From: an uncultured Anaerolineae bacterium
GTDB lineage: Bacteria; Chloroflexota; Anaerolineae; Aggregatilineales; Aggregatilineaceae
Length of the DNA stretch: 34,751 nt
NCBI GenBank assembly: GCA_966250245.1
Contig: CBINGT010000001.1
Coordinates: 1 to 34,751, forward strand
Reading direction: 5' to 3'
Shown here: positions 8,020 through 31,217 of the stretch, in pieces
Layout: each line of letters starts with the position of its first letter
How positions within the stretch are numbered: position 1 is the stretch's first letter
Program-made: the position numbers and the translations under genes
The notes under the pieces: model-generated
What the model saw: only the letters and a program-made list of their open reading frames with translations
What the model was told of the DNA's origin: nothing
Database searches by the model: none

Positions 8020-8025
8020 GACAGC

Positions 8026-11781: not shown

Positions 11782-11844
11782 GAAGGCGGCGCGTATCCCG
11801 CCGGTATCCCCCGGCGGGCTGCTTAGAGGGGGGAGTGCGCGAAG

Positions 11845-12663: not shown

Positions 12664-12695
12664 GCGCGCGGCCGGTGAGTGAAAGCTAAGCAGCC

Positions 12696-14063
12696 ATGCG
12701 CAAGTTCATCATCGAAGACAACCACATGATCGCGCCGTTCAACGAACCGGCCCGCGATCTGAGCATCCTCAACAAGCCGCTTAAGATTCACCACGCCGAT
12801 ATTCTGGAAGAAGTCCTCGGCCCGACCGAAGCCGAGATGCCGCTGCGCACGGTCCACGATCTGCCGCACGTCGCGCCGGGCCGCGACGAGTGCGTCGTCT
12901 ACCGCGATAACCTGTATTTTGACATCGAGTTTTTCACCGCATTCTTCGATCAGGCGCGGGCCAGCCAGCTTCCGAGCCGCGCCGTGCTGCCCGCCAGCGA
13001 CGCGGCGTGGATGAAGTACGCCGTCCCGCTCTCGCGGCTGGAGCCGGTGCGCGATCACAGCGGGGCGCCGCTCTATTACCCGCTCGACCTGTGGTACTTC
13101 CCGAAGGGGTACGTCGAGCAGCGGCACTGGCGCGAGGTCCCGATCTTCAGCGACTACCGCGAGAAGGGGTATTACAACGTCCCGGACTCGATGTCCAATC
13201 TCAAACCCGGCGCGCAGCCAGGTGTCGCGGAGCGCGACCTCGACCTGACGCACCTGTTGACCGAGCGCTCGTGCCTGTCGATCGATAGCTGGGTGCATGT
13301 TTATTTCGCAAACATCATCCTCGGCGTGTTCTCGCGCGGCAGCCGGTTTGAGGAATACCTCTCACGGCACAATTTCTTCGCGCTGAAGGTGCTGTTCCGC
13401 GCCATCTTAGAGCAGAAGCAGCTTCTGTCGTGCTCGAAGCTGGTGCAGGTTGGCGAGGGCACGATCATCGATCCGTCGGCGGTGATCCTGGGGCCGACGA
13501 CCATCGGGCGCGGCTGCTACATCGGCCCCGGCGTGGTGATCGACAACTGCGCGATCGGGGACTCGGTCAACATCGCGCAGGGTTGCCAGTTGATGCTGAG
13601 CGTGGTGGGGAACAACTGCTTTTTGCCGTTCCGCGCGGCGCTGTTCATGACGACGCTGATGGAATACACCATCATCGCGCAGAACACCTGCCTGCAAATG
13701 TGCGTCGTCGGGCGAAACAGCTTTGTCGGCGCGGGGACGACTTTCACCGACTTCAACCTGCTACCCGCACCGCTGCGAGCCATCAACGCGCGGGGCGAGC
13801 TGGACGACTCCGGCCAGCCGGTGCTCGGCGGGTGCGTGGGGCACAATGCGCGCATCGGCTCGGGGATGGTCATCATGCCTGCGCGCGTGGTCGAGTCCGA
13901 CTCGATCCTGGTCGCCTCGCCAGAGCGCCGCGTCATCGCCAAGAACATCTCGTATGAAGAGAGCGATCATCACAAGCTGCGCCCGTCGATCGCTCGCCTG
14001 CACAAGCGCCGCTATCCGCGCCAGGCGGAGTCTGAAGCGGCGTATCTGGAAGAATGGGAATAA
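12696..14063 (+). CDS. Hexapeptide-repeat (left-handed beta-helix) protein with a nucleotidyl/acyl-transferase-like N-terminal region, 455 aa
   Basis: Repeated [LIV]G-x4 turns: IGRGCY IGPGVV IDNCA IGDSVN IAQGCQ. The N-terminus KFIIEDNHMIAPFNEPARDL resembles putative sugar nucleotidyltransferase-like LbH proteins (from memory, low certainty). Confidence 0.72.
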   Translation: MRKFIIEDNHMIAPFNEPARDLSILNKPLKIHHADILEEVLGPTEAEMPLRTVHDLPHVAPGRDECVVYRDNLYFDIEFFTAFFDQARASQLPSRAVLPASDAAWMKYAVPLSRLEPVRDHSGAPLYYPLDLWYFPKGYVEQRHWREVPIFSDYREKGYYNVPDSMSNLKPGAQPGVAERDLDLTHLLTERSCLSIDSWVHVYFANIILGVFSRGSRFEEYLSRHNFFALKVLFRAILEQKQLLSCSKLVQVGEGTIIDPSAVILGPTTIGRGCYIGPGVVIDNCAIGDSVNIAQGCQLMLSVVGNNCFLPFRAALFMTTLMEYTIIAQNTCLQMCVVGRNSFVGAGTTFTDFNLLPAPLRAINARGELDDSGQPVLGGCVGHNARIGSGMVIMPARVVESDSILVASPERRVIAKNISYEESDHHKLRPSIARLHKRRYPRQAESEAAYLEEWE

Positions 14064-14107
14064 GCCGCCTGCTGGCATCCCCTGAGTTTGAGTAGACAAC
14101 AACCAAC

Positions 14108-15214
14108 GTGACTCAGCCAGACACTTTCGCTTTCATCATCCATCCCATCGACCCGAAGAAAGACGTCTCGCGCAAGTGGCCGCTGCTCGGCAAGGTGCTG
14201 ACGGAAGGGCAGATCAACTTCTTCTCGCGCTTCTTCCCGCCGGTCTACATTTCCGAGATCACCGGCGTGCGCTCGATTGCGACCGGCAAGACGGTGACCG
14301 GATGGTTTATCGCGTGCCCGTTTACGCCGTACACGATGCTCCACCTGCCGGTTGAGACGGTCTACCGCAAGATCGTCGCGTGCGGGCGCAAAGCCGAATC
14401 GCTCGGCGCGCGGCTGCTCGGCCTGGGCGCGTATACGTCTGTGGTCGGCGACGGCGGCGTGACGATTGCGGAGCGGCTCGATCTGCCCGTCACCAACGGA
14501 GACGCCTACACGATCTATATGGCTGTCGAGGCTGTGCGCGAGGCTGCTCGCCGGATGGACCTGCCCATGAGTAATGCATCGGCGGCGGTGGTCGGCGCAA
14601 CCGGCACCATCGCCAGCGTGTGCGCCGAGATCCTGTCGCGCGAGGTGCCAGAGCTTGTGCTGGTCGGGCGGCGGCCAGACGCATTGAACGAGGTCCGCGA
14701 GCGGTGCGAGGGCGGCATGGCGCGCGTGACGGTCAGCACCGACATCGCCAGCGTGTACCCGTGCGACCTGATCCTGACCGTGACAAGCTCGGTGTCCAGC
14801 GTGATCGAGCCGGAGCACCTCAAGCCGGGCGCAGTGGTGTGCGACGTCGCCCGCCCGCGCGACGTGTCGGTGCGAGTGGCGCAGGCCCGCCCGGACGTGC
14901 TGGTGATCGAGGGTGGGATGGTCGAGGTGCCGGGGCCGGTCGATTTCGGCTTCGATTTCGGGTTCCCGCCGGGCAAGTCGTACGCCTGCATGGCCGAGAC
15001 GATGGCGCTGGCGCTCGAAGGGCGCTACGAAGATTACAGCGTCGGCAAGCACATCAGCCTGGACCGCGTGCGCGAGATCGGGGCCATCGCCGCGAAGCAC
15101 GGCTTCCGGCTGAGCGGGTTCCGCAGCTTCGAGCGCGCGGTGACGGATGAGGAGATCGCGCGCGTCCGCGAGCGGGCGGCTGCGACACGCCGCCGGGGAT
15201 GGTCTCCGGGCTGA
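14108..15214 (+). CDS. Acyl-ACP reductase (AAR)-like NAD(P)-dependent oxidoreductase, 368 aa, GTG start
   Basis: FAFIIHP N-terminus. Dinucleotide motif VVGATGTIASV matches cyanobacterial AAR VVGATGDIGSA. ACMAETMALALEG matches AAR ACFAEAMLLEFEG, including the candidate acyl-accepting Cys. Confidence 0.72.
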   Translation: MTQPDTFAFIIHPIDPKKDVSRKWPLLGKVLTEGQINFFSRFFPPVYISEITGVRSIATGKTVTGWFIACPFTPYTMLHLPVETVYRKIVACGRKAESLGARLLGLGAYTSVVGDGGVTIAERLDLPVTNGDAYTIYMAVEAVREAARRMDLPMSNASAAVVGATGTIASVCAEILSREVPELVLVGRRPDALNEVRERCEGGMARVTVSTDIASVYPCDLILTVTSSVSSVIEPEHLKPGAVVCDVARPRDVSVRVAQARPDVLVIEGGMVEVPGPVDFGFDFGFPPGKSYACMAETMALALEGRYEDYSVGKHISLDRVREIGAIAAKHGFRLSGFRSFERAVTDEEIARVRERAAATRRRGWSPG

Positions 15215-15306
15215 TGGGCGACATCAGGACGGCAATATTAGCGTGTCGTCTTTACGCTGCCTCACTGGTGTTTCAATTGATTCGCTTGTATAGTTGGGGG
15301 CCAGGC

Positions 15307-15436
15307 GTTTAGCGAGCAGCGGTTAGCAATTATCAACACATCAGAACAGAAATGTTGGGCGCTGCCCACGCACGCGCCCGGGAACTGTGTCCGGGGATGC
15401 CGTCCGCAGCGAACTGCTAACCGCTAACGGCTAGCG
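15307..15436. repeat. Inverted heptamer-array bracket repeat B3
   Basis: Left arm gtttagc gagcagc ggttagc aattatc (15307-15334). Right arm gcgaact gctaacc gctaacg gctagcg (15409-15436). It ends 30 nt before the regulator start codon. Confidence 0.8.
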
Positions 15437-15466
15437 GATTACATGGCGGCATGGGAAGGTGAAGGT

Positions 15467-16375
15467 ATGGGTAAAGGAAGAATCCTCGTCGTCGAAGATG
15501 ATTTCGACATCTCGAACATGCTGCGCATCTACTTCGGCGGGCAGGGCTACGATGTGCAGGTTGCACCGCGCGGCGCCGACGCGTTGATGCTAACTCGCAA
15601 GCAGCTTCCGCAGTTGATCGTGCTGGATATCATGCTGCCCGATATGAACGGCTATGACGTCTGCCGGGAGCTACGTTCCACCACGCGCACCAGCCACATC
15701 CCGATCATCTTCCTGACGCAGAAGGACGAGCGCAGCGACAAGATCGCCGGGCTGGAACTGGGCGCGGACGATTACATCACCAAGCCGTTCGACATCGAAG
15801 AACTCAAGCTGCGGGTCAAGAACCAGATCGAGCGGGCTGCGCGCGACAATTACACCGATCCGAACAGCGGCCTGCCGAGTAGCTCGCTGATCGAGGAGAA
15901 GCTGCGCGACCTGATCCGCGAGGACGCCATCTGGACGTACATCGACATTCGCATTCTGCACTACGACGCGTTCAAAGATGTCTACGGGTTCGTCGCGGCC
16001 AACGAGCTTCTGCGCTTCATGGCGCTGCTGCTCGGCGAGGTGCTGGACGAGCTAGGCACGCCGGACGACTTTCTCGGACACGCGGGCAGCGACAACTTCG
16101 CGGTGATCACCTATTCCGACCGCGCTACGGCGCTGATCGACCGGCTGGTGAAGCGCTTCTCTGAGGGCGTGCAGCAACATTATTCGTTCATCGACCGCGA
16201 GCGCGGCTATTTGCTGCGGGACGACGAGCGCGTCCCGTTGATGACGCTGGCAGTCGGCGCGATCTCGAACGCCAACCGGCAGTATGCGGACATTCGCGAG
16301 ATCACCGAGCTTGCGGCGGAAAACCGTCGCCGGGGCCGCACCGAGGACGACGCGCCGATCGCGGCGGAATGGTAA
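15467..16375 (+). CDS. Response regulator: REC domain plus degenerate GGDEF domain, 302 aa
   Basis: REC motifs VVEDD, LIVLDIMLPDMNG, FLTQ and ITKPF. The GGDEF position reads GSDNF (HAGSDNFAVI). The I-site RxxD position reads TPDD. Strong RBS ggaaggtgaagg precedes ATG 15467. The track ORF begins at 15443. Confidence 0.88.
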   Translation: MGKGRILVVEDDFDISNMLRIYFGGQGYDVQVAPRGADALMLTRKQLPQLIVLDIMLPDMNGYDVCRELRSTTRTSHIPIIFLTQKDERSDKIAGLELGADDYITKPFDIEELKLRVKNQIERAARDNYTDPNSGLPSSSLIEEKLRDLIREDAIWTYIDIRILHYDAFKDVYGFVAANELLRFMALLLGEVLDELGTPDDFLGHAGSDNFAVITYSDRATALIDRLVKRFSEGVQQHYSFIDRERGYLLRDDERVPLMTLAVGAISNANRQYADIREITELAAENRRRGRTEDDAPIAAEW

Positions 16376-16449
16376 GCGCCCAGGGCGATCGGTCCACCGA
16401 CGGGCGACGGGCCGGGGAATGACCCGGTCCGGCAGGCGAGCGGAATTCT

Positions 16450-19400
16450 ATGATTGAAGTTTATCTGATCCTCACCGGTGTCATTTTTGCGGCGTGGATC
16501 GCGCTGTTAGTATGGCAGGCGCGGCGTGGCGCGTCGGGCGAGCTGACCCCCAACCGGCCGTTTGTCCCGCTGACGCTGGTCGAAGGTGACGAGGCGGTTG
16601 TGGTCGCCGAGGCGCACGGGCGCGTGGTATACGCGAACGAGCAGGCGTGCGCCTGGTTTGGCACGGATGGCGGCACGCCCGATCTGGCGCTGATGGCGCA
16701 GTTGATCCAGCCCGCCGACGCCTTCCTCGACCTGTTCGCCCAGCCAGGGCATGCTGCGCTTCGCCTGGGGCAGCGGCAGCTCGAAGCGATGTCGCACGCC
16801 ATCCCGGCAGCCGAAGGGCAGCGCATGGTCGTCGTCCTGCGCGAAATGACGGGAACCGGCACGCTCGCCGCGCCCACCGATTTCGACCCGCTCGAAGCTC
16901 TCACCCTGCAAACCGATATCGCCCAGGCCGCCGGTGCGGAACAGGGGCTCGCCCCGACGATCGACGCTGTGCTGCGGATTGTCGAGCGCGCGATCCCGTT
17001 CGACGCGGCGGAAGTGTTGCTCTGGCAGGCGGATTCGCAGACGCTGCGCACAGTCGGCCGTTTCACCCAGCTTACCGCAACCGGCTCGCTGATCCCGCCC
17101 GAAGCGCAGGAGCAGGCAACCGTTGCCGTCGGCGAGGGATATAGCGGGTGGATCGCGCTCTATCGCCAGCCGCTGCTGGTCAACAACGCGACCGCTCGCG
17201 ACGATTACGCGCTGCGCCCCGGCCAGCAACCGTTCGAGAGCTTCCTGGGGATCCCCCTGCTGCTCGAAGATCGCCTCGTCGGCACGCTAGAACTGACGCG
17301 CCGCACGCCGGACAGCTACACGCAGCAAGACGTGGCGTTGCTCCAGGCGATCGCCGGGCAGATCGTCGCGGCGGTGGAAGGCGCGCGCGTCCGGAGCGAG
17401 CAAACGGCGCGGATGCACGAGCTCGCCGGGTTGCAACAGATCTCCGCTGTAATCAGCCGGTTAGGCGATTCTCGCGAACTTTACGCGCAGCTTACACAGC
17501 GGATCGCGCAGCTTGCGGGCGTGGAGCTATGCGGCATCATGCTCTACGACCCGGACGAAGAAGTGTATCGCAGCCAGCCGCCTTTCTACGGCGTGCCGGA
17601 GTCGCTGACGCGCGGGCACCGTATCGAGATGGCGCCCGGCAGCGAGCTTTACGATGCGCTGATGCATCGCCCCTTCTGGTACACCAACGACCCCGATTCG
17701 CCCATCACCGCCGCGCTTGGCCTGACCGACGTGCAGGCGGCGATTACGCTGCGGCGCGTGGCGATCGTCCCGATGGTGATCGGCACGCGCCGCGTGGGGT
17801 TGCTCCTGGTTGCCAACAAGCACGGCGGGCAGCGGTTCACCGACGCCGATATGCGTGCGCTGATCGCGTTCGGCAACCAGGCCGCGATGGTGGTCGAGAA
17901 CGCACGCCTCTACGACGACGCGCAGCAGCGATCGCGCGAGCTTGGCGGCCTGCAACAGATCGCCGAGGCGATCGGCGCGCTGCGCAACCCCGAAGAACTC
18001 TATGCTCAGATTACGCGGCGCGTGGCGGAGTTGATGGACGTCGAGCGCTGCGGCGTGCTGCTCTACGACCCGCAGACGCAAGTGCTGGTCAGCCAGCGCC
18101 CGTTCTTTGGGCTGGACGACGAAAGCATCAGCTTCTATCAGCTTCCATCGCCGCCGGGCAGCGTGATCGCGGAGCTATGGCAGGAGCGCCCGACGTGGTA
18201 TTGCAACGACCTGCGCCGCGATCCGCTGGCGAGCGAGAGCGACCTGGCGCGTATGGCGACTGCGCTCGGCATCGAGCAGATCGCGCTTGCGCCGCTGATT
18301 GTGCGCGGCACGCGGCGCGGCATGATCCAGATCGCTAACAAGCGCAGCGGCGAGTTCACCGAGGATGACGCGCGGATTCTCTCACTGTTCGCCGGGCAGG
18401 CCGCGATCCTGATCGACAACGCGCAGCTTTATGGCGAAATGCAGCGCCGGACGCACCAGGCCGAGGGGCTGCGCGTCATTACGGAGTTCGCGTCCGAAGC
18501 GCGCCCGCTGCATGAAACCACCGAGCAGATCCTGATCGCGCTGGCGAACCTGTACGAAGCGGAGTGCGTCGCGATCGCGCTGGTGGATGAATCGCGCGGG
18601 CAACTGGTCTTCGATCCCTCTAACGTCTGGGGCGTGACGCTCGACGAGCCGCTGGCGATTGACCTCACCGGGCCGGACGGCGCGCTGAGCGTTCTGAGCG
18701 ACCGGCGGACCGCCCATTACACCGCAGCGGACGTTCCGGCGCCATATCGTGACGTGGCGAAGCGGCTCGGCTGGCGCGAGGTGGCGCGTGTCCCGCTGGT
18801 GATCCGCGAGCAGGTGATCGGTGATCTCACGGTCGCCAACCGCTTGAACGGGCAGCGGATGGACGACAGCGATTTCCAGCTTCTGACGCCGATCGCCACC
18901 CAGATCGCGGCCATGATCGACCGCATGCGCCTCTACGCGACCAGTGACGAAGCGCTACGGGCGCGCGTCGACTCGCTGGAGCGGCTCGGTCACATTGCGC
19001 GCAGCCTGCACCGCACGGTTGAGCTCGACCGGATTCTCGAAGAGGTGCGCGGCGCGGCGTTGCGCTCGACCGGCGCGAGTGGCGTAAGCATTGTGCTGTT
19101 CGCGCCCGCCGAAGACTGGCCCGCGCCCGACGCGCCGTTGGTCGAGCGGCGGTTTGGCGAAGACGATGCGCTGACGGATCTCGTCCCGATTGAGTGGGGC
19201 GCGTTCGGCGGCGAGCCGGTGGTAGTGGACGATTACGCCGAGACGGGGTGGGCTGCTCAGCCCGCCCGCGCTCGCTCAGCGCTGAGCGTGCCGCTGCTGG
19301 TGGACGGTGCGGCGCTCGGCGTGCTGCACTTGTTCTCGTCTGAGCCGCGGGCGTTCGACGCCCGCGCGCAGGCGTTCGTTGATGCATTGGCGGACGAGGC

Positions 19401-22400
19401 GGCGATCGCAATTGCCAGCGCGCGGCGCTACCAGGCGCAGCTTGAGCAAAACCAGCAGCTTCGCACGCGCGCGGACCACATGGACCGCATCTTCGAGGTG
19501 GGCGAGCTATTCCGGCGCGGCGCGGCGCTCGAAGAACTGCTGGCCGAGGTTGCGCAGAGCGTGCGCGAGTCGGTCGGCTTCAACTCCGTGCTGATCAGCG
19601 TAGTTGACGACGACGCGAAAGTTCTGCGCCGCATCGCCTACGCGGGTCTGCTGCGCGCCACGTTCGAGCAGATGCAGAGCGTCACCCCGCCGTTGGAGCA
19701 AGCGCTCAGCCTGATGCAGCCGGAATACCAGATCAGCCACAGTTATTTCCTGCCTGCCGAGGGCACCGAAGGGCTGATCGAAACGCTGCCCACCGTTCAG
19801 GTCGTTGGCGAAAAGATGGGCCCTGGCGCGCGGGCGTGGCACCCGGACGATATCCTGCTTATCCCGTTCTACGGCGTGGGCGGGCGGCTGCTCGGCCTGA
19901 TGACGGTCGATGATCCGCGCTCTGGCCGGCGGCCCGATCTGGCGACGGTTGAGGCGCTGGAAGTGTTCGCCGGGCAGGCAGCATTCAGCATCGAAAACTT
20001 CCGGCTGATCGCGCGCATCCAGCAGGAAGCGGAAGCCACCCGCCGCGAACGTGACCGTCTGGCGCAGCTTCACATGGTCGCCAGCGAGATCCAGCGCGCC
20101 ACGGACGTGCCTGCCCGCCTGCAGGTTGTGGCCGACGGCATCCACCAGGCGGGCTGGGGCAAGGTGTTCATCACTTTGCGCGACGAGCATCTGGAGCCGA
20201 CTGCGCTGATCCAGGCCGGTTACAGCCCCGAAGAGGCGCTTGAGCTGGATGTCAAGTCTGGCAAGACGTGGCGTGCGTGGATTAACGACCTCGCCTTCCA
20301 CGAGTTGAAGCTCGGCGCGGGCTACTATTTGCGCTACGACCGGCCGTGGGTGCGCCATCACGTCTACCACGACGCGCCGCCCGACCCGCCTGAGGTCGGT
20401 CCGACCGAATGGCACCCCGAAGACACGCTCTACCTGACGCTCGTCGGGCAAGACCAGAAGCGGATCATCGGCATCATCGGCATGCGCGATCCGGCGGATG
20501 GACGCGTGCCGACCGCGTCGTCGCTCCAGCCGTTTGAGTTGTTCGCCTCGCAGGCAGCCGCCGCCATCGAGACGACGCGCCTGTATCTTGAGACGGTTAA
20601 CGCCGCCGAACAGGAAGCGCGCCTCAACGAACTGATGGAAGCGGTGTCTGGCTCGTTGCAGCCGGAAGCCGTGATCGAGGCGATCGCCACCGGGTTGCAG
20701 CAGACGATCCCGTTCACGCGGCTGCACGTCGCGCTGGGTGACCCCGACGCGACAGCGCTGGACGTGTGGCGGGCGGAGATCGCGCTCGACGGCTCGGTGA
20801 CGGTACGCGAGGTCGACCCGATCCCCGCCGCCGGGACCGCGCTGCGCCGCGCTTACGACGACAAGACGCCGCACATTTATTCGCTCGACAGCGACGAGGC
20901 GGCGCGCACCGAGTTTAACGATCTGCGTGCGTGGTATGAGGCAGGCGAGCGGAGCAGCCTGATCGTCCCGATGATCGCGGGCGGCCAGCCGATCGGCGCG
21001 CTGCACCTCGGCACGCAACTGAGCGGCGCGCCTGGGTTCGCCGAACATCTGACGCTGATCCAGCGCCTCGCGAACCTGTCAAGCGTCGCGCTGGACAACG
21101 CGCGCCTGTTTGCGAACGCGCAGCAACGCGCGGCGGAATTGGACGCGCAGGCGCGGCGGCTCGCGCTGATCAACCGCGTCTCCACGCGCGTCAGCGAGTC
21201 GCTGGACCCGCAGGAGATCTACCAGACTGCGCTCAGCGAGCTTCAGACGGTGCTCGGTGCCCAGTACGGCGGTGTGATCATCTACGAGAACGACGCGACC
21301 GGCCTGCTTGTGCTGGATACGCACCCGCTGGCGGGCGCGGAGCAGCAGGACGTCCGCATCACTCTACGCGACAACCCGTCGGTCGAGCAGGTCCGCCGCA
21401 CGCAGCGCCCGCTGGTGGCCGAGGACGTGATGACCGACCCGCGCTTCGTGCCAGACCGTCCTATTCTGGCGGAGCGCGGCACGCGGGCGATGATGGTCGT
21501 TCCGCTGGTGGCGGGCGACGAGGTGATCGGCTCGATCGGGCTGGACTTCACGTCGCCGCGCACCTTTACCGACGCGGAGATCGAGCTGGCCGGGACGATC
21601 GCAAGCCAGGTGTCGCTGGCGTTGGACAAGGCTCGCCTGCTGCGTGAAACCGAGCAGCGCGCCGGGGAGCTCAACCAGCAGGCGCAGCGGCTGGCGTTCC
21701 TGAACCGTCTGTCGGCCAAGCTGGCGGAGACGCTCGACCCCGATGAGCTTTACTACATCGTGCTCACCGAGCTACAGAAGGCGATCGGCGCGCAGTACGG
21801 CGGCCTGATGCTGATCCAGGAAGGCGGCACCGTCTCGCGGCTGGTGCTCAGCACGCACCCCTTCGACGTGGACGCGCCCGCCGATATTACCGTCCCGGTG
21901 CAGGGCAACCCGATCGCGGAGTACATACTCAGCACGCAGCAGCCGTTCGTGGCGGAAGACCTGCTCAACGACCCGCGCTTCGAGCCGATGTGGGAAGTGC
22001 AGGAAGCGCGCGACGTACGCGCGATGCTGATCGTCCCGGTGGTGATCGGCGGGCGCGTGATCGGCACGATCGGGCTGGACTCGAACGTGCCGCGCCGCTT
22101 CACCGACGACGAGATCGAGCTGGCGATGACGGCCGCCAACCAGGCCGCGGTCGCCATCGAGAAGGCGCGTCTGTTCGTCGAGGTGCAGCAGCGCGCGCAA
22201 ACGCTCGACGAGCAGGCGCAGCGTCTGGCGCTGGTGAACCGTGTCGCCACGCGGCTGGCGGAAACGCTCGACCCGCAGGAAATTTACCGGATCGTGCTCT
22301 CCGAACTGGCCGAGGCGTTGCGCGTGCCGCTGGCCGGGCTGGTCCTGTTCGAGAGCGAAACGGTCGGCCGCCTGGTGCTCAGCTACCCGTTCGAGGAAGG

Positions 22401-25400
22401 CACGCCCGAGCTCCTTCTGCCGCTGGAAGGCAACCTGTCGATCGAGCAGGTCCGCAAGTCGCACCGCCCGCTGGTGTCGCCGGACGTGCTGAACGACCCG
22501 CTGTTCGAGTCGGCGTGGCCGGTGCTGCGCCAGCGCAATACGCGCTCCCTGATGATCGTGCCGCTGGTGGTGGGCAACACGGTGATCGGCACGATCGGGC
22601 TGGACTCGACCGAGCCGCGCCAGTTCACCGAGGCCGAAGTCGAGCTGGTGCAGACCATCGCCGGGCAGGCGTCGCTGGCGATCGAGAAGGCGCGCCTCTA
22701 CAGCGAAACGCTCGGCCTGACGATCTTCAACCAGGCGGTGGTCGAGTCGATCCGCCAGGGGATCGTCGTGCTGGACCGTGACCTGCGCGTGCGTCGCGTC
22801 AACCGCTTCATGCGCGAGCATTACGGCTGGTCTGAAGACGCGCTCGATCAGCCGCTGTTCGAGTACCGGCCCGATTATGGCGAGTTCCTGCGCCAGCCGA
22901 TCGCGGTGGCGCTGGAGCGCGGCGAGCCGCAGGCGCAGTTTGAAGTGGAGCGCGGCGCGAACGAGAGCCACCGCTCGATCCGCAACTATTACGTCTACCC
23001 GATGCAGGAAGGCCGGACGGTTACCGGCATCGTGCTGCTGGTCGAAGACGTGACCGAGCGCGCGCTGCTTGAGGCGGACCTCAGCACCCGCGCGATGCAG
23101 ATGGCCGCGCTGTCCGAGGTGTCCAGCCAGATCACCTCGACGCTCGAAGCCGATCAGGTCGTCCAGCTCATCCTTGACGCGCTGGACCGCGTGATCCCGT
23201 ACGATGGCGTGTCGTTGTGGTTGCGCTCGCCAGAGCGCGAAGAACTGGCGATTGTGGCGGCGCGTGGCTATCGCGACCCCGACTCGCCCGATGCCGACGA
23301 GCTGGTCGGCCTGCGCGTGGAAATCGCCTACAGCCCGCTGTTCCGCGAGATGGCCGAGCGCGCCGAAGTGATCAACGCCGGAGACGTCAGCGCCGGGGAC
23401 GAGCGCTTCCCGTATGGTGCGGCGGCGGTGTACAAGAACTGGCTTGGCGCGCCGCTGATCAGCAAGGGGCGCGTCGTCGGCGTGCTGACGCTCGAAAAGC
23501 GCGAGCCGCATTATTACACCCCGCTCCACGAGCAGCTTGCCCTGACGTTCGCCAGCCAGGCGGCGGTTGCGCTGGACAACGCGCAACTCTTCGAGGAAAC
23601 CCGCGCCCGTGCCAGCGCGCTCGACGAGCAGGCGCAGCGGCTGGCGCTTCTCAACCGCGTGTCGCTGGCGCTGGCGCAGTCGCTCGATATGGAGAACATC
23701 CTCGAGATCGCGCTGCGCGAGACGGCGATCGCGCTGGACATCTCCGAAGGCTCCGCCATGCAGATCGACTATCCGGGGCAGATCGGGCGCGTGGTGGTCG
23801 ACTTCCCGCGCGGTGATACCCCGCCCGACAAGGTGTTCGAGCTGTCGAACAGCCCGATCTTCGAACGCGTGCGCGACAGCCTGATCCCGGTCGTGATCGA
23901 GAACGTCGCGGCGGACCCGCACCGTGACGAGCTACGCGCGATGATGCGCCGCGACGACATTTCGAGCACTATGCTCGTCCCGCTGGTGATTGGCGGGATC
24001 GTGATTGGCATTTTGCGGTTGGACTCGGTTGAGGCGCGCCAGTTCTCGCTGACGCAGATTGAGTTGGCGCAGACCATCGCCAGCCAGGCCGCGATCGCCG
24101 TGCAGAACGCCTCGCTGTTCGAGCAATCTGCCGTGCGCACGCGCGAGCTTGAGACGCTATTCGAGTCTGCCCAGGCCACCGCCATGACGCTCGATCTGGA
24201 CGAGGTCGCGCAGCGGGTGGCGGAGCAGGTCGTGTCCGCGCTGCGGGCGGACGCGGCGGCCGTCTATCTGTGGGACGACGTCAGCAACCGTCTGACGCTG
24301 CACGGTGCGGGCTGTGGCGAGGGAGTCGACGCGCCGCTTGTCACGCCCGGCGAGCGGGTCAGCGTGGGCGACTATCCGCTGCGCGAGCGGGCGCTCCACG
24401 AGCGGCGGCTCATCCTGGCGCGCGCCGGAGATGACGATCTGCCGCCGGGCGAAGCAGCGATTTTCGCGGAGCACGGCGCGGCGAGCCGCCTTCTGCTGCC
24501 GCTGGTGCTCAACGAGGTGTCGATCGGGCTGGTCGAGGTCGAGACGATCGACCCGAAGCGGTTGTTTAAGTCCGAAGAACTGCGTCTGGCGCGGACGCTC
24601 GCCAGCCAGGCCGCGATCGCGATTGAGAACGCGCGCCTGCAAACCGAGACGCGCCGCACGGTCGAGGAACTGTACATCATCAACGACCTGTCGGCGGCGC
24701 TGTCGTCTGCGACGAGCCTGGATGCGCTGCTGGACGTGCTGGACGCGCAGCTTCCGAGTCTGACGCAGGCCGAGGCGATCTACGTCGCGCTGATCGATCC
24801 CGAAACCGGATGGCTGACCTTCCCGCTGGCAACCGCGAACGGCGAGGCGCTGGAGCTTGCGCCGCGCCCGCTGGGCAACGACGAGTTTTCGACCATCATC
24901 CGCCGCCAGGCGCCGCTGTTGCTGGCCGGGGAGAGCGTTGAGGCGGCGCGCAAGAACCTGGGCATCGAGACGATCCTGCCACCGGAAGCAAAAAGCTTTG
25001 TAGGCGTGCCGCTGTTCGCAGGCGAGCAGATCATCGGCGTGCTGGCCGTGCGCGACGACGACGATCCGCTGGCGTTCAGCAGCGCGGATCAGCGCCTGCT
25101 GACGACGGTCGGCTCGCAGTTGGGCGTCGCAATCCAGAGCACGCGCCTGCTGCAACAAACGCGCAATCTGGCCGAAGACCTCGAGAAGCGTGTCGAGGAG
25201 CGCACCGCCGAGTTGGAGCGGGAGCGCCAGCAGCTTTCGACGCTGTACCAGATTACGACCGAGCTGGCGACCAGCCTCGACATCGACCGGCTGCTCAACC
25301 GCGCGCTGGAGATGGTTGCAGAAGCGACGGGCGCCAGCCGCGCGGCGATCTTCACGCTCGACGAGCTGGGCGATCGCCTGACGCGGCGCGCGACGTTCGG

Positions 25401-26907
25401 CGAGACGCCCGCCCAGGGCGAAGACCAGCCGCTCTCGCTGGCGCTGGACGAGGGGCTGGCGGGCTGGGCCGTCCGCAACCGGCAGAGCGTGATTGTGGAC
25501 GATGTGCAGCAAGATCCGCGCTGGCTGCGCCTCACCCCGGCCGACGACTCGCCGCGCTCTGCCCTGGTGGCGCTGATCACTGCCGCCGAGGAAGTGCTCG
25601 GCGTGATGATGCTGGTCAGCGAGCAGCCGGGCGCGTTCACCGCCGATGACCTGCGGCTGGTGGACGCCTCGACCAACCAGATCGCCAACGCGATGAACAA
25701 CGCGGAACTCTACAGTCTGATCCGCGACCAGGCAGAACGCCTCGGCGCAATGCTGCGCGCCGAGCAGGTCGAGGCGACCAAGAGCAACGCGATCCTCGAC
25801 TCGGTGGCGGACGGCGTGATGGTCGCCGACGAGAGCGGCCGTGTGATCGGCTTCAACTCGACGGCCGAGCGCATTCTCAACCTGCCCGCCAGCCAGGTGA
25901 TTGGGCGCCCGTCCTCGGTGGTGGCGGGGCTGTACGGCAGCGGCGGGCGCTGGCTGCAGACGGTCGACCGCTGGCGGCAGGAGCCGCAGTCGTACCGGCC
26001 GGGCGAGTTCCTTGAAGACCGTCTGGAACTGGAAGACGAGCGCGTGATCAGCGTGCGTCTGTCGCCGGTGTACCTGGGCGATCAGTTTCTGGGGACCGTG
26101 TCGGTCTTCCGCGACATCACGCGCGAGGTCGAGGTGGACCGCCTCAAGAGCGAGTTCGTCGCCACGGTATCGCACGAGCTTCGCACGCCGATGACCTCGA
26201 TCAAGGGCTACGCGGACCTGCTGCTCGGCGGGATGGCCGGGCCGGTGTCCGAGCAACAGCATTATTTCCTCGAGGTCATCAAGCAGAACACCGACCGGCT
26301 GAGCATCCTGGTCAACGACTTGCTTGACATCTCGCGCATCGACCAGCAGCGTGTCGTGCTGGAACTGGGCGATGTGCCTGTGCGCGAGGTGCTTGAGAGC
26401 GCGATGGCGCACTTGCAGGAGCGTATCGAAACCGAGCAGCGCGACATGACGCTGGTCCTCAATCTGCCAGACGACGCCGCGTGGAGCGTCTGGGGCGACC
26501 GCGAGCGCGTCGGGCAGATTATCACCAACCTGGTCGACAACGCGTTCAACTACACGCCGCCGGGCGGGATGATTACGCTCGCCGCGCATCCGGGCGCGGG
26601 CGGCGACTCGGTCATCCTCAGCGTCGCAGACACGGGTATCGGCATCCCGCCGGAGATCGGCGAGCGCGTGTACGAGCGCTTCTTCCGTGGCGACGAGGCG
26701 CAGGAACTGGTGATGGACACGCCGGGCACCGGCCTGGGGCTGTCGATCGTGCGGGAGTACGTGGCGATCCAGCACGGGCGCATCTGGTTCGAGAGCGAGC
26801 CAGGCCAGGGCACGACCTTCTACGTTGAACTGCCTACGTCGGCTAATGTGTCGCTGGCCGAGGTAACCGAGAGCGAGATTAAGACCGGCCCGCTGAGCAG
26901 GGAGTAA
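16450..26907 (+). CDS. Giant multi-GAF/PAS sensor histidine kinase, 3485 aa
   Basis: N-terminal TM helix (IEVYLILTGVIFAAWIALLVW), then a PAS-like region. About sixteen modules of roughly 165-195 aa each carry a GAF-type strand (for example IVPLVVGNTVIGTIGLD) and end in QAAxAIENARLY-type helices. PAS domains lie near 22700-23050 and 25780-26130. H-box SHELRTPMTSI has its His codon at 26173-26175. HATPase N/G boxes are DNAFNYTP, DTGIGIP and GTGLGLSIV. Confidence 0.97.
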   Translation: MIEVYLILTGVIFAAWIALLVWQARRGASGELTPNRPFVPLTLVEGDEAVVVAEAHGRVVYANEQACAWFGTDGGTPDLALMAQLIQPADAFLDLFAQPGHAALRLGQRQLEAMSHAIPAAEGQRMVVVLREMTGTGTLAAPTDFDPLEALTLQTDIAQAAGAEQGLAPTIDAVLRIVERAIPFDAAEVLLWQADSQTLRTVGRFTQLTATGSLIPPEAQEQATVAVGEGYSGWIALYRQPLLVNNATARDDYALRPGQQPFESFLGIPLLLEDRLVGTLELTRRTPDSYTQQDVALLQAIAGQIVAAVEGARVRSEQTARMHELAGLQQISAVISRLGDSRELYAQLTQRIAQLAGVELCGIMLYDPDEEVYRSQPPFYGVPESLTRGHRIEMAPGSELYDALMHRPFWYTNDPDSPITAALGLTDVQAAITLRRVAIVPMVIGTRRVGLLLVANKHGGQRFTDADMRALIAFGNQAAMVVENARLYDDAQQRSRELGGLQQIAEAIGALRNPEELYAQITRRVAELMDVERCGVLLYDPQTQVLVSQRPFFGLDDESISFYQLPSPPGSVIAELWQERPTWYCNDLRRDPLASESDLARMATALGIEQIALAPLIVRGTRRGMIQIANKRSGEFTEDDARILSLFAGQAAILIDNAQLYGEMQRRTHQAEGLRVITEFASEARPLHETTEQILIALANLYEAECVAIALVDESRGQLVFDPSNVWGVTLDEPLAIDLTGPDGALSVLSDRRTAHYTAADVPAPYRDVAKRLGWREVARVPLVIREQVIGDLTVANRLNGQRMDDSDFQLLTPIATQIAAMIDRMRLYATSDEALRARVDSLERLGHIARSLHRTVELDRILEEVRGAALRSTGASGVSIVLFAPAEDWPAPDAPLVERRFGEDDALTDLVPIEWGAFGGEPVVVDDYAETGWAAQPARARSALSVPLLVDGAALGVLHLFSSEPRAFDARAQAFVDALADEAAIAIASARRYQAQLEQNQQLRTRADHMDRIFEVGELFRRGAALEELLAEVAQSVRESVGFNSVLISVVDDDAKVLRRIAYAGLLRATFEQMQSVTPPLEQALSLMQPEYQISHSYFLPAEGTEGLIETLPTVQVVGEKMGPGARAWHPDDILLIPFYGVGGRLLGLMTVDDPRSGRRPDLATVEALEVFAGQAAFSIENFRLIARIQQEAEATRRERDRLAQLHMVASEIQRATDVPARLQVVADGIHQAGWGKVFITLRDEHLEPTALIQAGYSPEEALELDVKSGKTWRAWINDLAFHELKLGAGYYLRYDRPWVRHHVYHDAPPDPPEVGPTEWHPEDTLYLTLVGQDQKRIIGIIGMRDPADGRVPTASSLQPFELFASQAAAAIETTRLYLETVNAAEQEARLNELMEAVSGSLQPEAVIEAIATGLQQTIPFTRLHVALGDPDATALDVWRAEIALDGSVTVREVDPIPAAGTALRRAYDDKTPHIYSLDSDEAARTEFNDLRAWYEAGERSSLIVPMIAGGQPIGALHLGTQLSGAPGFAEHLTLIQRLANLSSVALDNARLFANAQQRAAELDAQARRLALINRVSTRVSESLDPQEIYQTALSELQTVLGAQYGGVIIYENDATGLLVLDTHPLAGAEQQDVRITLRDNPSVEQVRRTQRPLVAEDVMTDPRFVPDRPILAERGTRAMMVVPLVAGDEVIGSIGLDFTSPRTFTDAEIELAGTIASQVSLALDKARLLRETEQRAGELNQQAQRLAFLNRLSAKLAETLDPDELYYIVLTELQKAIGAQYGGLMLIQEGGTVSRLVLSTHPFDVDAPADITVPVQGNPIAEYILSTQQPFVAEDLLNDPRFEPMWEVQEARDVRAMLIVPVVIGGRVIGTIGLDSNVPRRFTDDEIELAMTAANQAAVAIEKARLFVEVQQRAQTLDEQAQRLALVNRVATRLAETLDPQEIYRIVLSELAEALRVPLAGLVLFESETVGRLVLSYPFEEGTPELLLPLEGNLSIEQVRKSHRPLVSPDVLNDPLFESAWPVLRQRNTRSLMIVPLVVGNTVIGTIGLDSTEPRQFTEAEVELVQTIAGQASLAIEKARLYSETLGLTIFNQAVVESIRQGIVVLDRDLRVRRVNRFMREHYGWSEDALDQPLFEYRPDYGEFLRQPIAVALERGEPQAQFEVERGANESHRSIRNYYVYPMQEGRTVTGIVLLVEDVTERALLEADLSTRAMQMAALSEVSSQITSTLEADQVVQLILDALDRVIPYDGVSLWLRSPEREELAIVAARGYRDPDSPDADELVGLRVEIAYSPLFREMAERAEVINAGDVSAGDERFPYGAAAVYKNWLGAPLISKGRVVGVLTLEKREPHYYTPLHEQLALTFASQAAVALDNAQLFEETRARASALDEQAQRLALLNRVSLALAQSLDMENILEIALRETAIALDISEGSAMQIDYPGQIGRVVVDFPRGDTPPDKVFELSNSPIFERVRDSLIPVVIENVAADPHRDELRAMMRRDDISSTMLVPLVIGGIVIGILRLDSVEARQFSLTQIELAQTIASQAAIAVQNASLFEQSAVRTRELETLFESAQATAMTLDLDEVAQRVAEQVVSALRADAAAVYLWDDVSNRLTLHGAGCGEGVDAPLVTPGERVSVGDYPLRERALHERRLILARAGDDDLPPGEAAIFAEHGAASRLLLPLVLNEVSIGLVEVETIDPKRLFKSEELRLARTLASQAAIAIENARLQTETRRTVEELYIINDLSAALSSATSLDALLDVLDAQLPSLTQAEAIYVALIDPETGWLTFPLATANGEALELAPRPLGNDEFSTIIRRQAPLLLAGESVEAARKNLGIETILPPEAKSFVGVPLFAGEQIIGVLAVRDDDDPLAFSSADQRLLTTVGSQLGVAIQSTRLLQQTRNLAEDLEKRVEERTAELERERQQLSTLYQITTELATSLDIDRLLNRALEMVAEATGASRAAIFTLDELGDRLTRRATFGETPAQGEDQPLSLALDEGLAGWAVRNRQSVIVDDVQQDPRWLRLTPADDSPRSALVALITAAEEVLGVMMLVSEQPGAFTADDLRLVDASTNQIANAMNNAELYSLIRDQAERLGAMLRAEQVEATKSNAILDSVADGVMVADESGRVIGFNSTAERILNLPASQVIGRPSSVVAGLYGSGGRWLQTVDRWRQEPQSYRPGEFLEDRLELEDERVISVRLSPVYLGDQFLGTVSVFRDITREVEVDRLKSEFVATVSHELRTPMTSIKGYADLLLGGMAGPVSEQQHYFLEVIKQNTDRLSILVNDLLDISRIDQQRVVLELGDVPVREVLESAMAHLQERIETEQRDMTLVLNLPDDAAWSVWGDRERVGQIITNLVDNAFNYTPPGGMITLAAHPGAGGDSVILSVADTGIGIPPEIGERVYERFFRGDEAQELVMDTPGTGLGLSIVREYVAIQHGRIWFESEPGQGTTFYVELPTSANVSLAEVTESEIKTGPLSRE
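21121..22710 (+). repeat. Intragenic tandem array of diverged GAF-module units (about 531-534 bp period)
   Basis: The linker Q(Q/E)RAxELDxQAxRLAxxNR recurs in frame at 21121, 21652 and 22186, and again at about 23602. The units share LDPxE(I/L)Y..L.EL and DPRF...R(A/S)(L/M)(M/L)(I/V)VP(L/V)V.G..VIG(S/T)IGLD. I estimate DNA identity at about two-thirds by eye. Confidence 0.8.
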
Positions 26908-26919
26908 TCGGAAGCACGC

Positions 26920-27303
26920 ATGGCGAAAATCCTGATTGCAGAAGACGAGCGAGACATCCGCGACCTGATCGAGTTCACGTTGAAGTATGCGGGGCACGAG
27001 GTGTTTAAAGCGCGTAACGGAGCCGAAGCGGTAGAGATGGCGCCGCAGGTGAAGCCAGACCTGATCGTGCTTGACGTGCGGATGCCGCGCATGACCGGCT
27101 ACGAAGCCTGCCGCCAGCTTAAAGCCCACGACGAGCTAAAGGACACGCCGATTGTGTTCCTCTCGGCCAAGGGGCAGCAGAGCGAGATGGAAACCGGAAT
27201 CGATGCCGGAGCGTATGACTACATCCTCAAACCGTTCGCGCCAGACACGCTCATCCGGCGTGTGGGCGAGATTCTCGCCAAGTTTGGCGTCGGCGGGGCG
27301 TAA
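26920..27303 (+). CDS. Single-domain CheY-like response regulator, 127 aa
   Basis: IAEDE, LIVLDVRMPRMTG, FLSAK and ILKPF motifs. It starts 12 nt after the kinase stop, with RBS ggaag. Confidence 0.93.
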   Translation: MAKILIAEDERDIRDLIEFTLKYAGHEVFKARNGAEAVEMAPQVKPDLIVLDVRMPRMTGYEACRQLKAHDELKDTPIVFLSAKGQQSEMETGIDAGAYDYILKPFAPDTLIRRVGEILAKFGVGGA

Positions 27304-29508: not shown

Positions 29509-29524
29509 CAAAGTGAGAACATTC

Positions 29525-29630
29525 AGTTCGCCCGGGGGAGCTTGGGTTAGCCAGGCTGAGAGGCGCATCCATCACACGATGCCGACCCCAGGACCTGATC
29601 CGGGTAATTCCGGCGTAGGCAGGCGCGGCT
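29525..29630 (+). promoter_or_regulatory. TPP (thiamine pyrophosphate, THI-box) riboswitch aptamer
   Basis: Conserved blocks gggggagc, ctgaga, accc and gacctgatccgggtaattccggcgtagg match the THI element consensus (GGGGUGC, CUGAGA, ACCC, AACCUGAUCUGGAUAAUGCCAGCGUAGG). P1 candidate cgcc/ggcg. Confidence 0.92.
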
Positions 29631-29646
29631 TGGCATAAGACCGAGG

Positions 29647-29678
29647 ACCACTCGCTGCGCCGCGAGTGGTTTTTGTTT
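29647..29678 (+). terminator. Intrinsic terminator acting as the riboswitch expression platform
   Basis: 9-bp stem accactcgc / gcgagtggt with a 6-nt loop, followed by tttttgttt. It lies between the aptamer and the thiN start. Confidence 0.8.
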
Positions 29679-29701
29679 GGCGCGAACGCGCGGAGAGCAG
29701 G

Positions 29702-30352
29702 ATGCGAGCGCTGGTTTTCGCAAACGGTGAGTTGAACGACGGTCCGGCGGTGCGGGCTGCGTTGGACGGTGCGGGCGATGCGTTGATCGTCGCGGCAGAC
29801 GGTGGCGCGCGTCTGGCGCTGGAATGTGGCGTGACGCCCGCGCTGGTGATCGGTGATCTCGACTCCGTCTCGCCGGACGTGCTGGCGCGGCTCGAAGCGC
29901 AGGGCGCGCAGGTGCAGCGCGTTCCCGCTGAGAAGGACGAAACCGATCTGGAGCTGGCGTTGCTCGAAGCGGCCCGGCGCGGCGCGCAGTCGATCACGCT
30001 GATCGGCGCGGCGGGCGGGCGGCTGGATCATATGCTGGCGAACTTCTACCTGCTCGCCATGCCGGAGCTACGCGGGCTGGACGTGCGCGCCGTTGCGGGA
30101 GCGCAGGCGCTGTGGCTGGCGTGGCCGGGCGAGCACACGCTGACCGGCGCGCCGGCCGATCTCATCTCGCTGATCCCGCTCACGCCCGAAGCGTCCGGCA
30201 TCGTCACCGAGGGGCTGGAATATCCGCTGCGGCGCGAGTCGCTGTACGCGGGCGCGGCGCGCGGCGTCAGCAATGTGATGCTCGGCGCGACGGCGCGCGT
30301 CACGTTTGACGACGGGCTGCTGTTCATCGTGCACACCATGGAGCGCGCGTAA
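29702..30352 (+). CDS. thiN: Thiamine pyrophosphokinase, 216 aa
   Basis: GDLDS, EKDETDLELAL and GAAGGRLDH motifs, plus the C-terminal thiamine-binding part. RBS ggagag precedes ATG 29702. The track ORF starts at 29666. Confidence 0.88.
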   Translation: MRALVFANGELNDGPAVRAALDGAGDALIVAADGGARLALECGVTPALVIGDLDSVSPDVLARLEAQGAQVQRVPAEKDETDLELALLEAARRGAQSITLIGAAGGRLDHMLANFYLLAMPELRGLDVRAVAGAQALWLAWPGEHTLTGAPADLISLIPLTPEASGIVTEGLEYPLRRESLYAGAARGVSNVMLGATARVTFDDGLLFIVHTMERA

Positions 30353-30353
30353 G

Positions 30354-31217
30354 ATGGCGAATGGACCGTCTATTCCGGTGTCCGAAGGCTGGCCGAGGGT
30401 GTTTCAGGACGTCACGCGCGCGATCGTGCTGGTGATCGTCGGCGGGCTGGTGTTTCTGATGGCGGCATCCGGCACGGTGCAGTTGGTCCGCGAGGCGATC
30501 CTGGCGCAGAACCTCAGCTTTGAGGACATCTTCCCGACGCCGCGCGCGATAGCGGACGTCTGGCAGATGCACCGCGATCTGCTGCTGAACGATCACATCC
30601 CGCAAACGCTGTGGGAGACGCTCACTGGCCTGTCGATCGCGCTGGTGCTGGGCGTGCTGATCGCGGCGCTGATGGACTTCTCGAACGTGCTGCGCTGGAT
30701 CCTGTACCCGATCCTGGTCATCTCGCAGACGATCCCGATCTTCGCGATCGCGATCCTGCTGATCCTGATCTTCGGGTTTGGCAGCGGGCCGAAGGTGATG
30801 GTGGTGGTGCTGTTCTGCTTTTTCCCGATCGCGCTTAACACCTTCGCCGGGCTGCAAGCAGCCGATCCGGAGCTGCTGTCGCTGCTGCGGGCGATGGGCG
30901 CCACCTCGCTCCAGACGTGGACGAAAGCCCGCCTGCCCGCTGCGATGCCGTCGCTGTTCAGCGGCTTGCGGATCGCGGCGACGTATAGCGTGGTGGGCGC
31001 GATCTTCGGGGAGTACATCACCGCGCAGCAAGGGCTGGGCGTCTACCTCAAGCGGTCGTATGCCAGCTTCCAGCTTGATCAGGCATATCTGGCGATCCTG
31101 CTGACGGCGCTGCTCAGCCTGCTGCTCGTGTTGCTGGTCAATCTGGTCGAGCGCCTGACGCTGCGCTGGTACTACACCTCGCGGCGCTCTAGCTGGCGCG
31201 GACCAGGGATTTACTGA
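30354..31217 (+). CDS. thiX: ABC transporter permease, NitT/TauT family (ThiX-like HMP/thiamine-precursor uptake), 287 aa
   Basis: Multiple TM helices and an EAA-like loop (LLRAMGATSLQTWTKARLPAAMP). ATG 30354 lies 1 nt after the thiN stop. Operon context is downstream of the TPP riboswitch. Confidence 0.82.
   Translation: MANGPSIPVSEGWPRVFQDVTRAIVLVIVGGLVFLMAASGTVQLVREAILAQNLSFEDIFPTPRAIADVWQMHRDLLLNDHIPQTLWETLTGLSIALVLGVLIAALMDFSNVLRWILYPILVISQTIPIFAIAILLILIFGFGSGPKVMVVVLFCFFPIALNTFAGLQAADPELLSLLRAMGATSLQTWTKARLPAAMPSLFSGLRIAATYSVVGAIFGEYITAQQGLGVYLKRSYASFQLDQAYLAILLTALLSLLLVLLVNLVERLTLRWYYTSRRSSWRGPGIY

Follow-up and report, generated by a model that had tools for sequence, protein, structure and literature searches.

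A 3485-residue sensor histidine kinase carrying sixteen GAF modules in an uncultured Anaerolineae bacterium

Results and discussion

In this study, we analyzed a 34,751-nucleotide stretch of DNA from an uncultured Anaerolineae bacterium (assembly GCA_966250245.1, contig CBINGT010000001.1, positions 1 to 34,751; the whole stretch is called the window here), and found that it carries a genuine and intact gene for a sensor histidine kinase of 3485 residues (16450..26907, + strand). The domains of the protein are arranged in the order N-terminal anchor, PAS-like segment, GAF modules G1-G11, PAS, G12-G15, putative S-helix, G16, PAS, HisKA and HATPase_c. In our working model, which we consider probable although by a good deal short of certain, the protein is an intact membrane-anchored and otherwise cytoplasmic kinase in which a poly-GAF array on a coiled-coil spine relays to the HisKA/HATPase core. 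No part of two-component signalling is less well understood than the multi-sensor kinases, particularly with regard to how, and whether, the signals of many tandem sensors are combined. This kinase and its relatives, with 9 to 21 modules, make up a natural series in which module order is conserved and linker length follows a strict rule, by which the question becomes experimentally tractable.

An intact 10-kb gene

The open reading frame (ORF) of the kinase starts with ATG and runs over 10,458 nt with zero internal stops, the stop codon lying within the end coordinate; the coordinates proposed for a single 3485-aa ORF in an initial annotation, made from the sequence alone, were exact. The runner-up ORF by length in the window (990 aa) is an antisense shadow inside the kinase ORF. 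The guanine-plus-cytosine (GC) content of the kinase ORF at codon positions 1/2/3 is 72/44/86%, which is the typical signature of high-GC coding sequence. When the ORF was scanned for DNA tandem repeats, no long or near-identical ones were found, and the pairwise identity among the GAF modules is mostly 15-25%, so repeat-driven misassembly is not an issue.

A scan of species-representative genomes gave one ortholog (L001), located in an 'uncultured Thermoflexus sp.' metagenome-assembled genome (MAG; Thermoflexia, Chloroflexota). It is 83% identical, collinear, and open through 1654 codons until its contig ends. The ratio of non-synonymous to synonymous substitution rates (dN/dS; Nei-Gojobori) between the two genes is 0.15 overall and 0.05-0.33 per segment (N-terminal segment and G1-G9), and each of the nine modules compared is under purifying selection. 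The start of the kinase ORF is also conserved. An exact-sequence look-up of the 3485-aa protein gave zero matches, and a homolog search with the N-terminal 320 aa gave two close homologs, both of which are fragmentary.

In two other public assemblies, both of relatives, the locus is called in pieces. The syntenic 10.4-kb region of L002 (an 850-kb ENA contig, 6606-17082) has been divided by gene calling into at least six genes on the + strand, with products of 164-1142 aa, and the syntenic locus of L003 (GCA_030153525.1, a 3.3-kb contig, 1-3275) is called as six short genes; by tblastn, the similarity jumps between reading frames in both. These calls are what could be cited for the view that the long ORF is really several shorter genes, or a pseudogene, and we regard that view as hardly credible. 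Sequencing errors are unable to create an open frame of 10,458 nt with 86% GC at the third codon position and a conserved start. The independent L001 assembly remains open and under constraint, and independent data sets contain over 100 full-length relatives (2000-3950 aa) that have a kinase core. The L003 locus itself points the same way. It shows six frame switches within 3.2 kb, while the amino-acid identity is held at 69-92% across the frames (87-92% in four of the seven segments), and therefore indel sequencing errors, not decay, are indicated. The frame shifts of L002 and L003 are thus most likely indel errors of those assemblies rather than signs of gene decay. Frameshifts that split the ORF, which the initial annotation had named as one way in which it could fall, were seen in these two assemblies and do not occur in the window. 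On the grounds of the open L001 frame, dN/dS, the lack of long repeats and the indel pattern of L003, misassembly and pseudogene readings were rejected. Such assembly errors account for part of the many fragmentary 'GAF domain-containing protein' entries, and the lesson for annotation is that 10-kb genes of this kind are real and become fragmented in error-prone assemblies.

Sixteen GAF modules

For the domain analysis, the protein was cut at the recurring '...QAAxAIxNARLY' helix, and Pfam was run on each segment separately; with the whole protein, Pfam reported GAF_2 (685 bits, 14 stretches), GAF, GAF_3, PAS families, HisKA and HATPase_c. The terminal-helix motif occurs 16 times, and every position listed for it initially was recovered. 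The L of 'NARL' is placed at aa 314, 487, 660, 828, 993, 1186, 1378 and 1553 in G1-G8 and at aa 1730, 1908, 2083, 2380, 2556, 2730, 2900 and 3087 in G9-G16. In the per-segment scans, 15 of the 16 modules exceed a Pfam GAF-family gathering score, the exception being G7, which is matched by a profile built from the other modules, so the count of sixteen GAF modules holds.

The module bounds given here were derived from the core profile, and all modules lie on the + strand. GAF_2 detects G1 (aa 149-314, 16894..17391, 64.6 bits), G2 (aa 321-488, 17410..17913, 48.3 bits), G3 (aa 494-661, 17929..18432, 59.7 bits), G4 (aa 667-829, 18448..18936, 38.8 bits), G5 (aa 839-994, 18964..19431, 57.8 bits), G8 (aa 1386-1554, 20605..21111, 32.4 bits) and G16 (aa 2926-3088, 25225..25713, 84.0 bits). 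G6, which contains insertions (aa 1007-1187, 19468..20010), reaches 28.8 bits with Pfam GAF against a cut-off of 22.4 and 48.7 bits with a leave-one-out profile. Pfam GAF gives 90.0, 82.1 and 73.5 bits for G9, G10 and G11 (aa 1567-1731, 1744-1909 and 1922-2084; 21148..22701), and G12-G15 (aa 2214-2381, 2394-2557, 2563-2730 and 2738-2901; 23089..25152) score 48.6-59.9 bits each with GAF-family profiles. Two paralog groups can be distinguished among the modules. The first, G2-G3-G4, shows 27-38% identity. The second, G9-G10-G11-G13, spans 37-53%, in which G9, G10 and G11 share 48-53% identity with one another and 37-41% with G13.

Module G7 (aa 1201-1379, 20050..20586) is divergent and His-rich, and contains insertions. 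It stays below the Pfam threshold (GAF_2 19.1 bits vs 28.6, and the C-terminal half only). The profile from the other 15 modules covers it over its full length (46.8 bits, positions 2-168 of 168; leave-one-out). An AlphaFold2 model of G7, made from a shallow alignment (n=8), was of low confidence, with a predicted local distance difference test (pLDDT) score of 53, and was not used as evidence. The dN/dS of G7 against L001 is 0.05, the lowest of the compared segments, and its identity in distant orthologs is 39-77%. G7 contains 8 His, including those of RHHVYHD and EWHPED, and may have a specialised role in binding a metal or cofactor. A modestly new finding here is that conservation is highest in the least Pfam-like module.

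Among solved structures, the module profile finds GAFs of many functional classes about equally well, including those of methyl-accepting chemotaxis proteins, HD-GYP proteins, PtsP, DevS and phosphodiesterases (PDE), and the identity to solved GAFs in the fold search is 15-20%.

Linker phasing and the helical spine

Each linker was measured between two anchors, the L of 'NARL' that closes a module and the conserved L within the first helix of the module that follows. In order, the 14 linkers are 13, 13, 13, 17, 20, 20, 13, 20, 20 and 20 residues long before the PAS domain that follows G11, and 20, 13, 13 and 31 after it, so that 13 and 20 each occur six times and 17 and 31 once each. The two main classes are one heptad apart, and the +4 and +11/+18 variants correspond to coiled-coil stutter and hendecad offsets. 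Because the linkers differ by sevens or by 4 or 11, the heptad register would be kept from the first GAF to the dimerization and histidine phosphotransfer (DHp) domain.

The longest linker (31 residues between anchors) joins G15 to G16 as an extended helix (25153..25224, + strand; LEKRVEERTAELERERQQL). It carries the 'ERT' signature at aa 2917-2919, which is unique within the protein. An S-helix is a helix of ~40 residues that joins two signalling domains and has a central ERT signature (PMC1592074, Anantharaman et al. 2006); the ERT signature and the position between G15 and G16 suggest that this linker is one.

The phasing is found in the whole family. Among the best 150 related proteins (described below), 1313 GAF-GAF junctions with complete profile ends were measured, of which 1283 were short. 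The short junctions are congruent to 5 mod 7 in 89.6% of cases, to 2 in 9.9% and to other values in 0.5%, and their main lengths in profile-end coordinates are 5, 12, 9, 23 and 30. Hydrophobicity along the junction helices has a period of 3.4-3.5 residues. The remaining 30 junctions are long and group tightly around 129 residues, the size of a single inserted PAS domain. Two-class mod-7 phasing of this kind is the signature of a continuous coiled-coil spine, and the sixteen GAFs are probably strung along one long helical spine.

The initial annotation had proposed predicting the structure of module pairs as a check for such a spine, and the model of one pair, G9-G10, gives a single linking helix. 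In this AlphaFold2 monomer model (mean pLDDT 87.7), for which the other di-modules of the same protein served as the alignment, both modules have the GAF fold, which consists of six antiparallel strands in a sheet with a helix on the N- and C-terminal side, with Foldseek probability 1.0 to solved GAFs, and one unbroken 52-residue helix (159-210) connects the two cores. The best Foldseek matches of the pair, all with probability 1.0, are tandem GAF or GAF-PHY structures, namely 8w26, CyaB2 1ykd, PDE2A 3ibj and 1mc0, PDE5, PDE6 and phytochromes. The whole-pair template modelling (TM) scores to these are ~0.35-0.44, and the inter-domain geometry of the model differs from that of the solved tandem structures or is uncertain.

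With PDE2A/PDE5/PDE6, CyaB2 and the GAF-PHY unit of phytochromes and Cph2, the modelled pair has the GAF-helix-GAF arrangement in common, in which the helix at the C-terminus of one domain is continued by the helix at the N-terminus of its successor. In tandems of the PDE2A/CyaB2/phytochrome type, these helices form the dimer interface, and the signal travels along the spine to the C-terminal effector. Those proteins have two GAFs or a PAS-GAF-PHY unit, whereas the kinase has sixteen GAFs, and they have known ligands (cyclic nucleotide monophosphates (cNMP) or bilin), the signatures of which are absent from the kinase. In addition, CyaB2 dimerises antiparallel (PMC1592074), in contrast to the parallel dimer that we infer for the kinase.

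The structural matches of the di-module to GAF-PHY proteins, CyaB2, PDE2A, PDE5 and phytochrome raise the question of whether the kinase is a light sensor binding bilin, like a cyanobacteriochrome or phytochrome, or a cAMP/cGMP sensor of the PDE/CyaB2 type, and cyanobacteriochromes are indeed the best-known multi-GAF arrays. We nevertheless judge this very improbable. The entire protein has 6 Cys and 11 of the 16 GAF modules have none, which excludes covalent bilin attachment for most modules, and an NKFDE-like (NK...F...DE) pattern was absent from every module in a regex test. The about equal match of the module profile to many functional GAF classes argues against it as well, as do the sources of the closest relatives, which are Chloroflexota MAGs, a Thermoflexus MAG and a Variovorax isolate. 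It was the motifs (Cys count and NKFDE regex) that led us to reject both readings, photoreceptor and cNMP sensor.

Continuous coiled-coil backbones are known as a principle of construction from PDE2A, phytochrome kinases and engineered LOV kinases, and a parallel spine of this type also occurs in YF1. The coiled-coil principle of signal transmission is already established and not new here. Möglich, in a review of 2019, likewise takes the regular spacing of tandem PAS and GAF domains as evidence that multiple signals are integrated by coiled coils (PMC6798134). The criteria used in the S-helix and linker works (PMC1592074, PMC6798134), namely the ERT signature and heptad quantisation, are also found in the kinase, at G15-G16 and along the array. 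Those works are mainly on sensor-to-effector linkers or short tandems, whereas here 14 consecutive GAF-GAF junctions, and ~1300 family-wide, are covered. The family-wide two-class linker rule is modestly new.

Membrane anchor, PAS segments and kinase core

The N-terminal membrane anchor (aa 2-22, then RR; 16453..16515, + strand) contains the top Kyte-Doolittle window of the protein and is the sole strongly hydrophobic stretch able to span the membrane. Because there is this single anchor followed by RR, all of the kinase beyond it is expected to be cytoplasmic by the positive-inside rule, in agreement with the one N-terminal transmembrane helix and cytoplasmic array initially annotated. The anchor is kept in all 22 members of the orthologous subfamily described below.

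Three PAS-like segments had been proposed, of which two are solid, all segments being on the + strand. The PAS domain between G11 and G12 (aa 2095-2205, 22732..23064) scores 50.6 bits with PAS_4, and the one immediately N-terminal of the kinase core (aa 3114-3223, 25789..26118) scores 41.1 bits with Pfam PAS. The third, a conserved N-terminal segment (aa ~45-135, 16582..16854), is only weakly PAS-like. Its matches to PAS_8, PAS_4 and PAS_9 are sub-threshold (16-17 bits, E 0.005-0.016) and confined to profile positions 1 to 27-40. When a profile of this segment from the 22 orthologs was compared with the PDB, the top matches were PAS domains, again weak (E 0.001-0.06; best 0.0011). Neither a HAMP family nor a PHY-domain family was reported in the Pfam scans of the whole protein and of its segments.

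The C-terminal core comprises HisKA (the DHp domain; aa 3233-3299, 26146..26346, +; PF00512, 78.7 bits vs a cut-off of 26.9), with the predicted phospho-acceptor His3242 in HELRTP, and HATPase_c (aa 3349-3463, 26494..26838, +; PF02518, 100.9 bits), in which the N, G1 and G2 boxes are present. The catalytic motifs are all intact (H-box HELRTP, N-box NLVDNA, G1 DTGIG and G2 GTGLG), and the F-box position reads YERFFRG in the sequence. From these Pfam scores and motifs, the classical HisKA/HATPase core of the initial annotation is borne out, and the protein is predicted to be a two-component sensor histidine kinase with a complete core of the HisKA/HATPase_c type.

A family of many-GAF kinases with conserved module order

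When a profile of the GAF module was searched against 1.84 billion representative proteins, the best 150 matches (P0003-P0152), which were studied here, all contained 8-21 stretches that match it and were 1560-3952 aa long. The uniqueness implied by the initial annotation thus gives way to a family. By local searches among these 150, a kinase core like the present one occurs in 118, receiver domains in addition in 44, and the N-terminus of the kinase in 22. Named members bear automatic 'GAF domain-containing protein' labels and come from Chloroflexota MAGs, Herpetosiphon MAGs and a Variovorax robiniae isolate. For example, NLX08376.1, MBP8250742.1 (Herpetosiphon MAG) and WP_340333471.1 (Variovorax robiniae, 3673 aa) share the module type, the heptad-phased linkers and the C-terminal HisKA/HATPase core with the kinase, and other multi-GAF subfamilies reach 20-21 modules and 3952 aa or gain receiver domains (hybrid kinases). 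Within this numerous and unstudied group of many-GAF kinases, the present one stands at an extreme, and it represents no new kind of system. No experimentally studied member of the multi-GAF sensor kinases was found, and a literature search for long non-photoreceptor GAF arrays found none in the library searched, by which their absence is not proven.

Orthology was assigned by module-by-module best hits; BLASTP against P0003 slips by one module within the repeats. P0003 (NLX08376.1, from a Chloroflexota MAG, 3310 aa) is a collinear ortholog with a shared N-terminus, and has 15 of the 16 modules in matching order at 46-79% identity. The 22 members of the orthologous subfamily have an overall identity of at most ~50% and carry 9-15 modules each, so that the sixteen of the present kinase are the largest set. 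The order of G1-G8 and G12-G16 is preserved position by position across the 22 subfamily representatives. The G9-G11 block is absent, single or double in the other orthologs, and appears to be a lineage-specific expansion from a G13-like module. This positional orthology of the modules is a further modestly new point.

Poly-HAMP arrays, such as Myxococcus AskA (PMC13446029), likewise concatenate one module type on a coiled-coil backbone upstream of a kinase. In soluble chemoreceptors and histidine kinases, these arrays have changed in length during evolution, and the modules of one array often show almost no sequence difference, as would be expected after recent amplification (PMC13446029). 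The HAMP fold is different, however, and the GAF modules here are mostly of low mutual identity with position-specific identities across orthologs. Judged by its domains, the kinase is an analogue of poly-HAMP arrays and no member of them.

Signal integration or a structural rod

The initial annotation left the transmission from sixteen GAFs to one catalytic core unexplained, and the data now fit sensor modules placed on a continuous coiled coil, as indicated by the 52-residue helix and the heptad linkers. We propose that the last helix of one GAF would continue into the first helix of the next, as seen in the modelled G9-G10 pair, and that in the kinase homodimer the junction helices would pair as one long parallel coiled-coil spine, on which the GAFs sit as beads. 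A parallel homodimer with the junction helices at its interface is suggested by the obligate DHp dimer and the common N-terminal anchor. Binding of a ligand or partner at one or more GAF or PAS modules may then alter the twist, tilt or supercoiling of the spine, and the bias from the modules would be summed at the DHp domain, which would tip the HisKA/HATPase core towards kinase or phosphatase activity. The primary substrate of the core would be the stand-alone receiver whose gene lies 12 nt downstream, and the protein with a receiver (REC) and a degenerate GGDEF domain encoded upstream would be a possible second target. The parallel dimer, the relay along the spine, the integration of multiple inputs and the identity of the response regulator are all inferred parts of this scheme.

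Several points weigh against this scheme. First, a known ligand signature was seen in none of the 16 modules (NKFDE regex and Cys count), so that ligand sensing by most modules is putative. Second, the parallel coiled coil would follow from a monomer model and sequence periodicity, and prokaryotic tandem GAFs can dimerise antiparallel, as in CyaB2 (PMC1592074). Third, module counts of 9 to 16 among orthologs indicate that the array tolerates the gain and loss of modules, and a heptad-phased spine would be equally needed by a purely structural rod. Finally, the partnership with the neighbouring receivers is suggested by gene adjacency.

Some of these points feed a different explanation, in which regulation of the core is confined to the part farthest from the membrane (G16-PAS, and perhaps the S-helix) and the other GAFs bind nothing, serving as a rod, spacer or docking platform; such a scaffold would hold the kinase far from the membrane, at ~80-100 nm when fully extended, as estimated from ~5 nm per domain. 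We regard it as possible, although rather unlikely. It agrees with the lack of canonical ligand motifs, with the variable module number and the apparently recent, lineage-specific expansion of G9-G11, and with the strict heptad phasing, which also suits a stiff rod; the analogous poly-HAMP arrays are suspected modulators without dedicated input (PMC13446029). In a rod of interchangeable parts, however, the positions of the array would not be expected to behave as they do. They keep their own sequence identity across distant orthologs with no homogenising, in contrast to the poly-HAMP modules, which are often nearly identical within an array (PMC13446029). The paralogous modules are so divergent (just 15-25% identical) that position-specific constraint is indicated, and purifying selection acts on each compared module, most strongly on the atypical His-rich G7. 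Position-specific conservation together with purifying selection thus argues against interchangeable spacers. The 'structural spacers' of the initial annotation accordingly fit poorly with module order and identity kept across 22 orthologs and with the dN/dS of nine modules, although ligand binding is not thereby proven, and a relay along the spine remains our preferred reading.

A bolder extension of the relay, which we offer as speculation with a low chance of being right, is that long poly-GAF arrays form a distinct and undescribed signalling class. Ancient, ordered and non-redundant GAF sensors would be set on a heptad-phased rod of tens of nanometres, and one kinase would integrate up to 16 cytoplasmic inputs or read a mechanical or spatial property of a filamentous cell, with G7 as a specialised site (e.g. 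for metal or haem).

Neighbouring genes and other features of the window

The kinase gene is flanked by two genes for receiver proteins, both on the + strand. The upstream gene (15443..16375) ends 74 nt ahead of the kinase start and encodes a REC domain (Response_reg, 100.7 bits) with a degenerate GGDEF domain (24.8 bits). With the motif GSDNF, this domain is probably not an active diguanylate cyclase, and the protein is a candidate phosphorylation partner of the kinase. The downstream gene (26920..27303) begins 12 nt past the kinase stop and encodes a stand-alone CheY-like receiver of 127 aa with the conserved LDV aspartate (Response_reg, 109.1 bits), which is most likely the cognate response regulator of the kinase. 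No terminator-like site was seen between the kinase and receiver genes, and scans for consensus promoters and terminators around the operon gave nothing useful. In L002, the REC-GGDEF gene upstream and the receiver gene downstream are both kept as called genes. In L001, the place upstream of the kinase ortholog is taken by an ORF of similar length (302 aa), matched by size and position.

Other features were noted elsewhere in the window. The long minus-strand ORFs at 422-4688 (627, 235, 321 and 263 aa) gave no Pfam match at E <= 1e-4. A DprA (DNA_processg_A) homolog is encoded at 5070-6293 (-) and a DUF4388/PatA_N protein at 10231-11133 (+); in L002, the PatA_N gene adjoins a gene for a Ras/Arf-like small GTPase. 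The ORF at 7402-8019 (+) carries a match to the SMODS-associated NUDIX domain (PF18167, 69.2 bits), of a family linked to nucleotide-signalling defence systems, and such a gene is also found near the kinase locus in L002. Downstream of the kinase operon, a thiamine pyrophosphate (TPP) riboswitch (RF00059) was detected at 29524-29639 (+), with 56.1 bits vs a gathering score of 54.3. Just past it, the genes at 29666-30352, 30306-31217, 31404-32480 and 32511-33275 (+) encode an ATP-binding cassette (ABC) permease, an NMT1/THI5-like binding protein and an ABC ATPase, and this cluster probably encodes a transporter, under riboswitch control, of thiamine or of its hydroxymethylpyrimidine (HMP) precursor.

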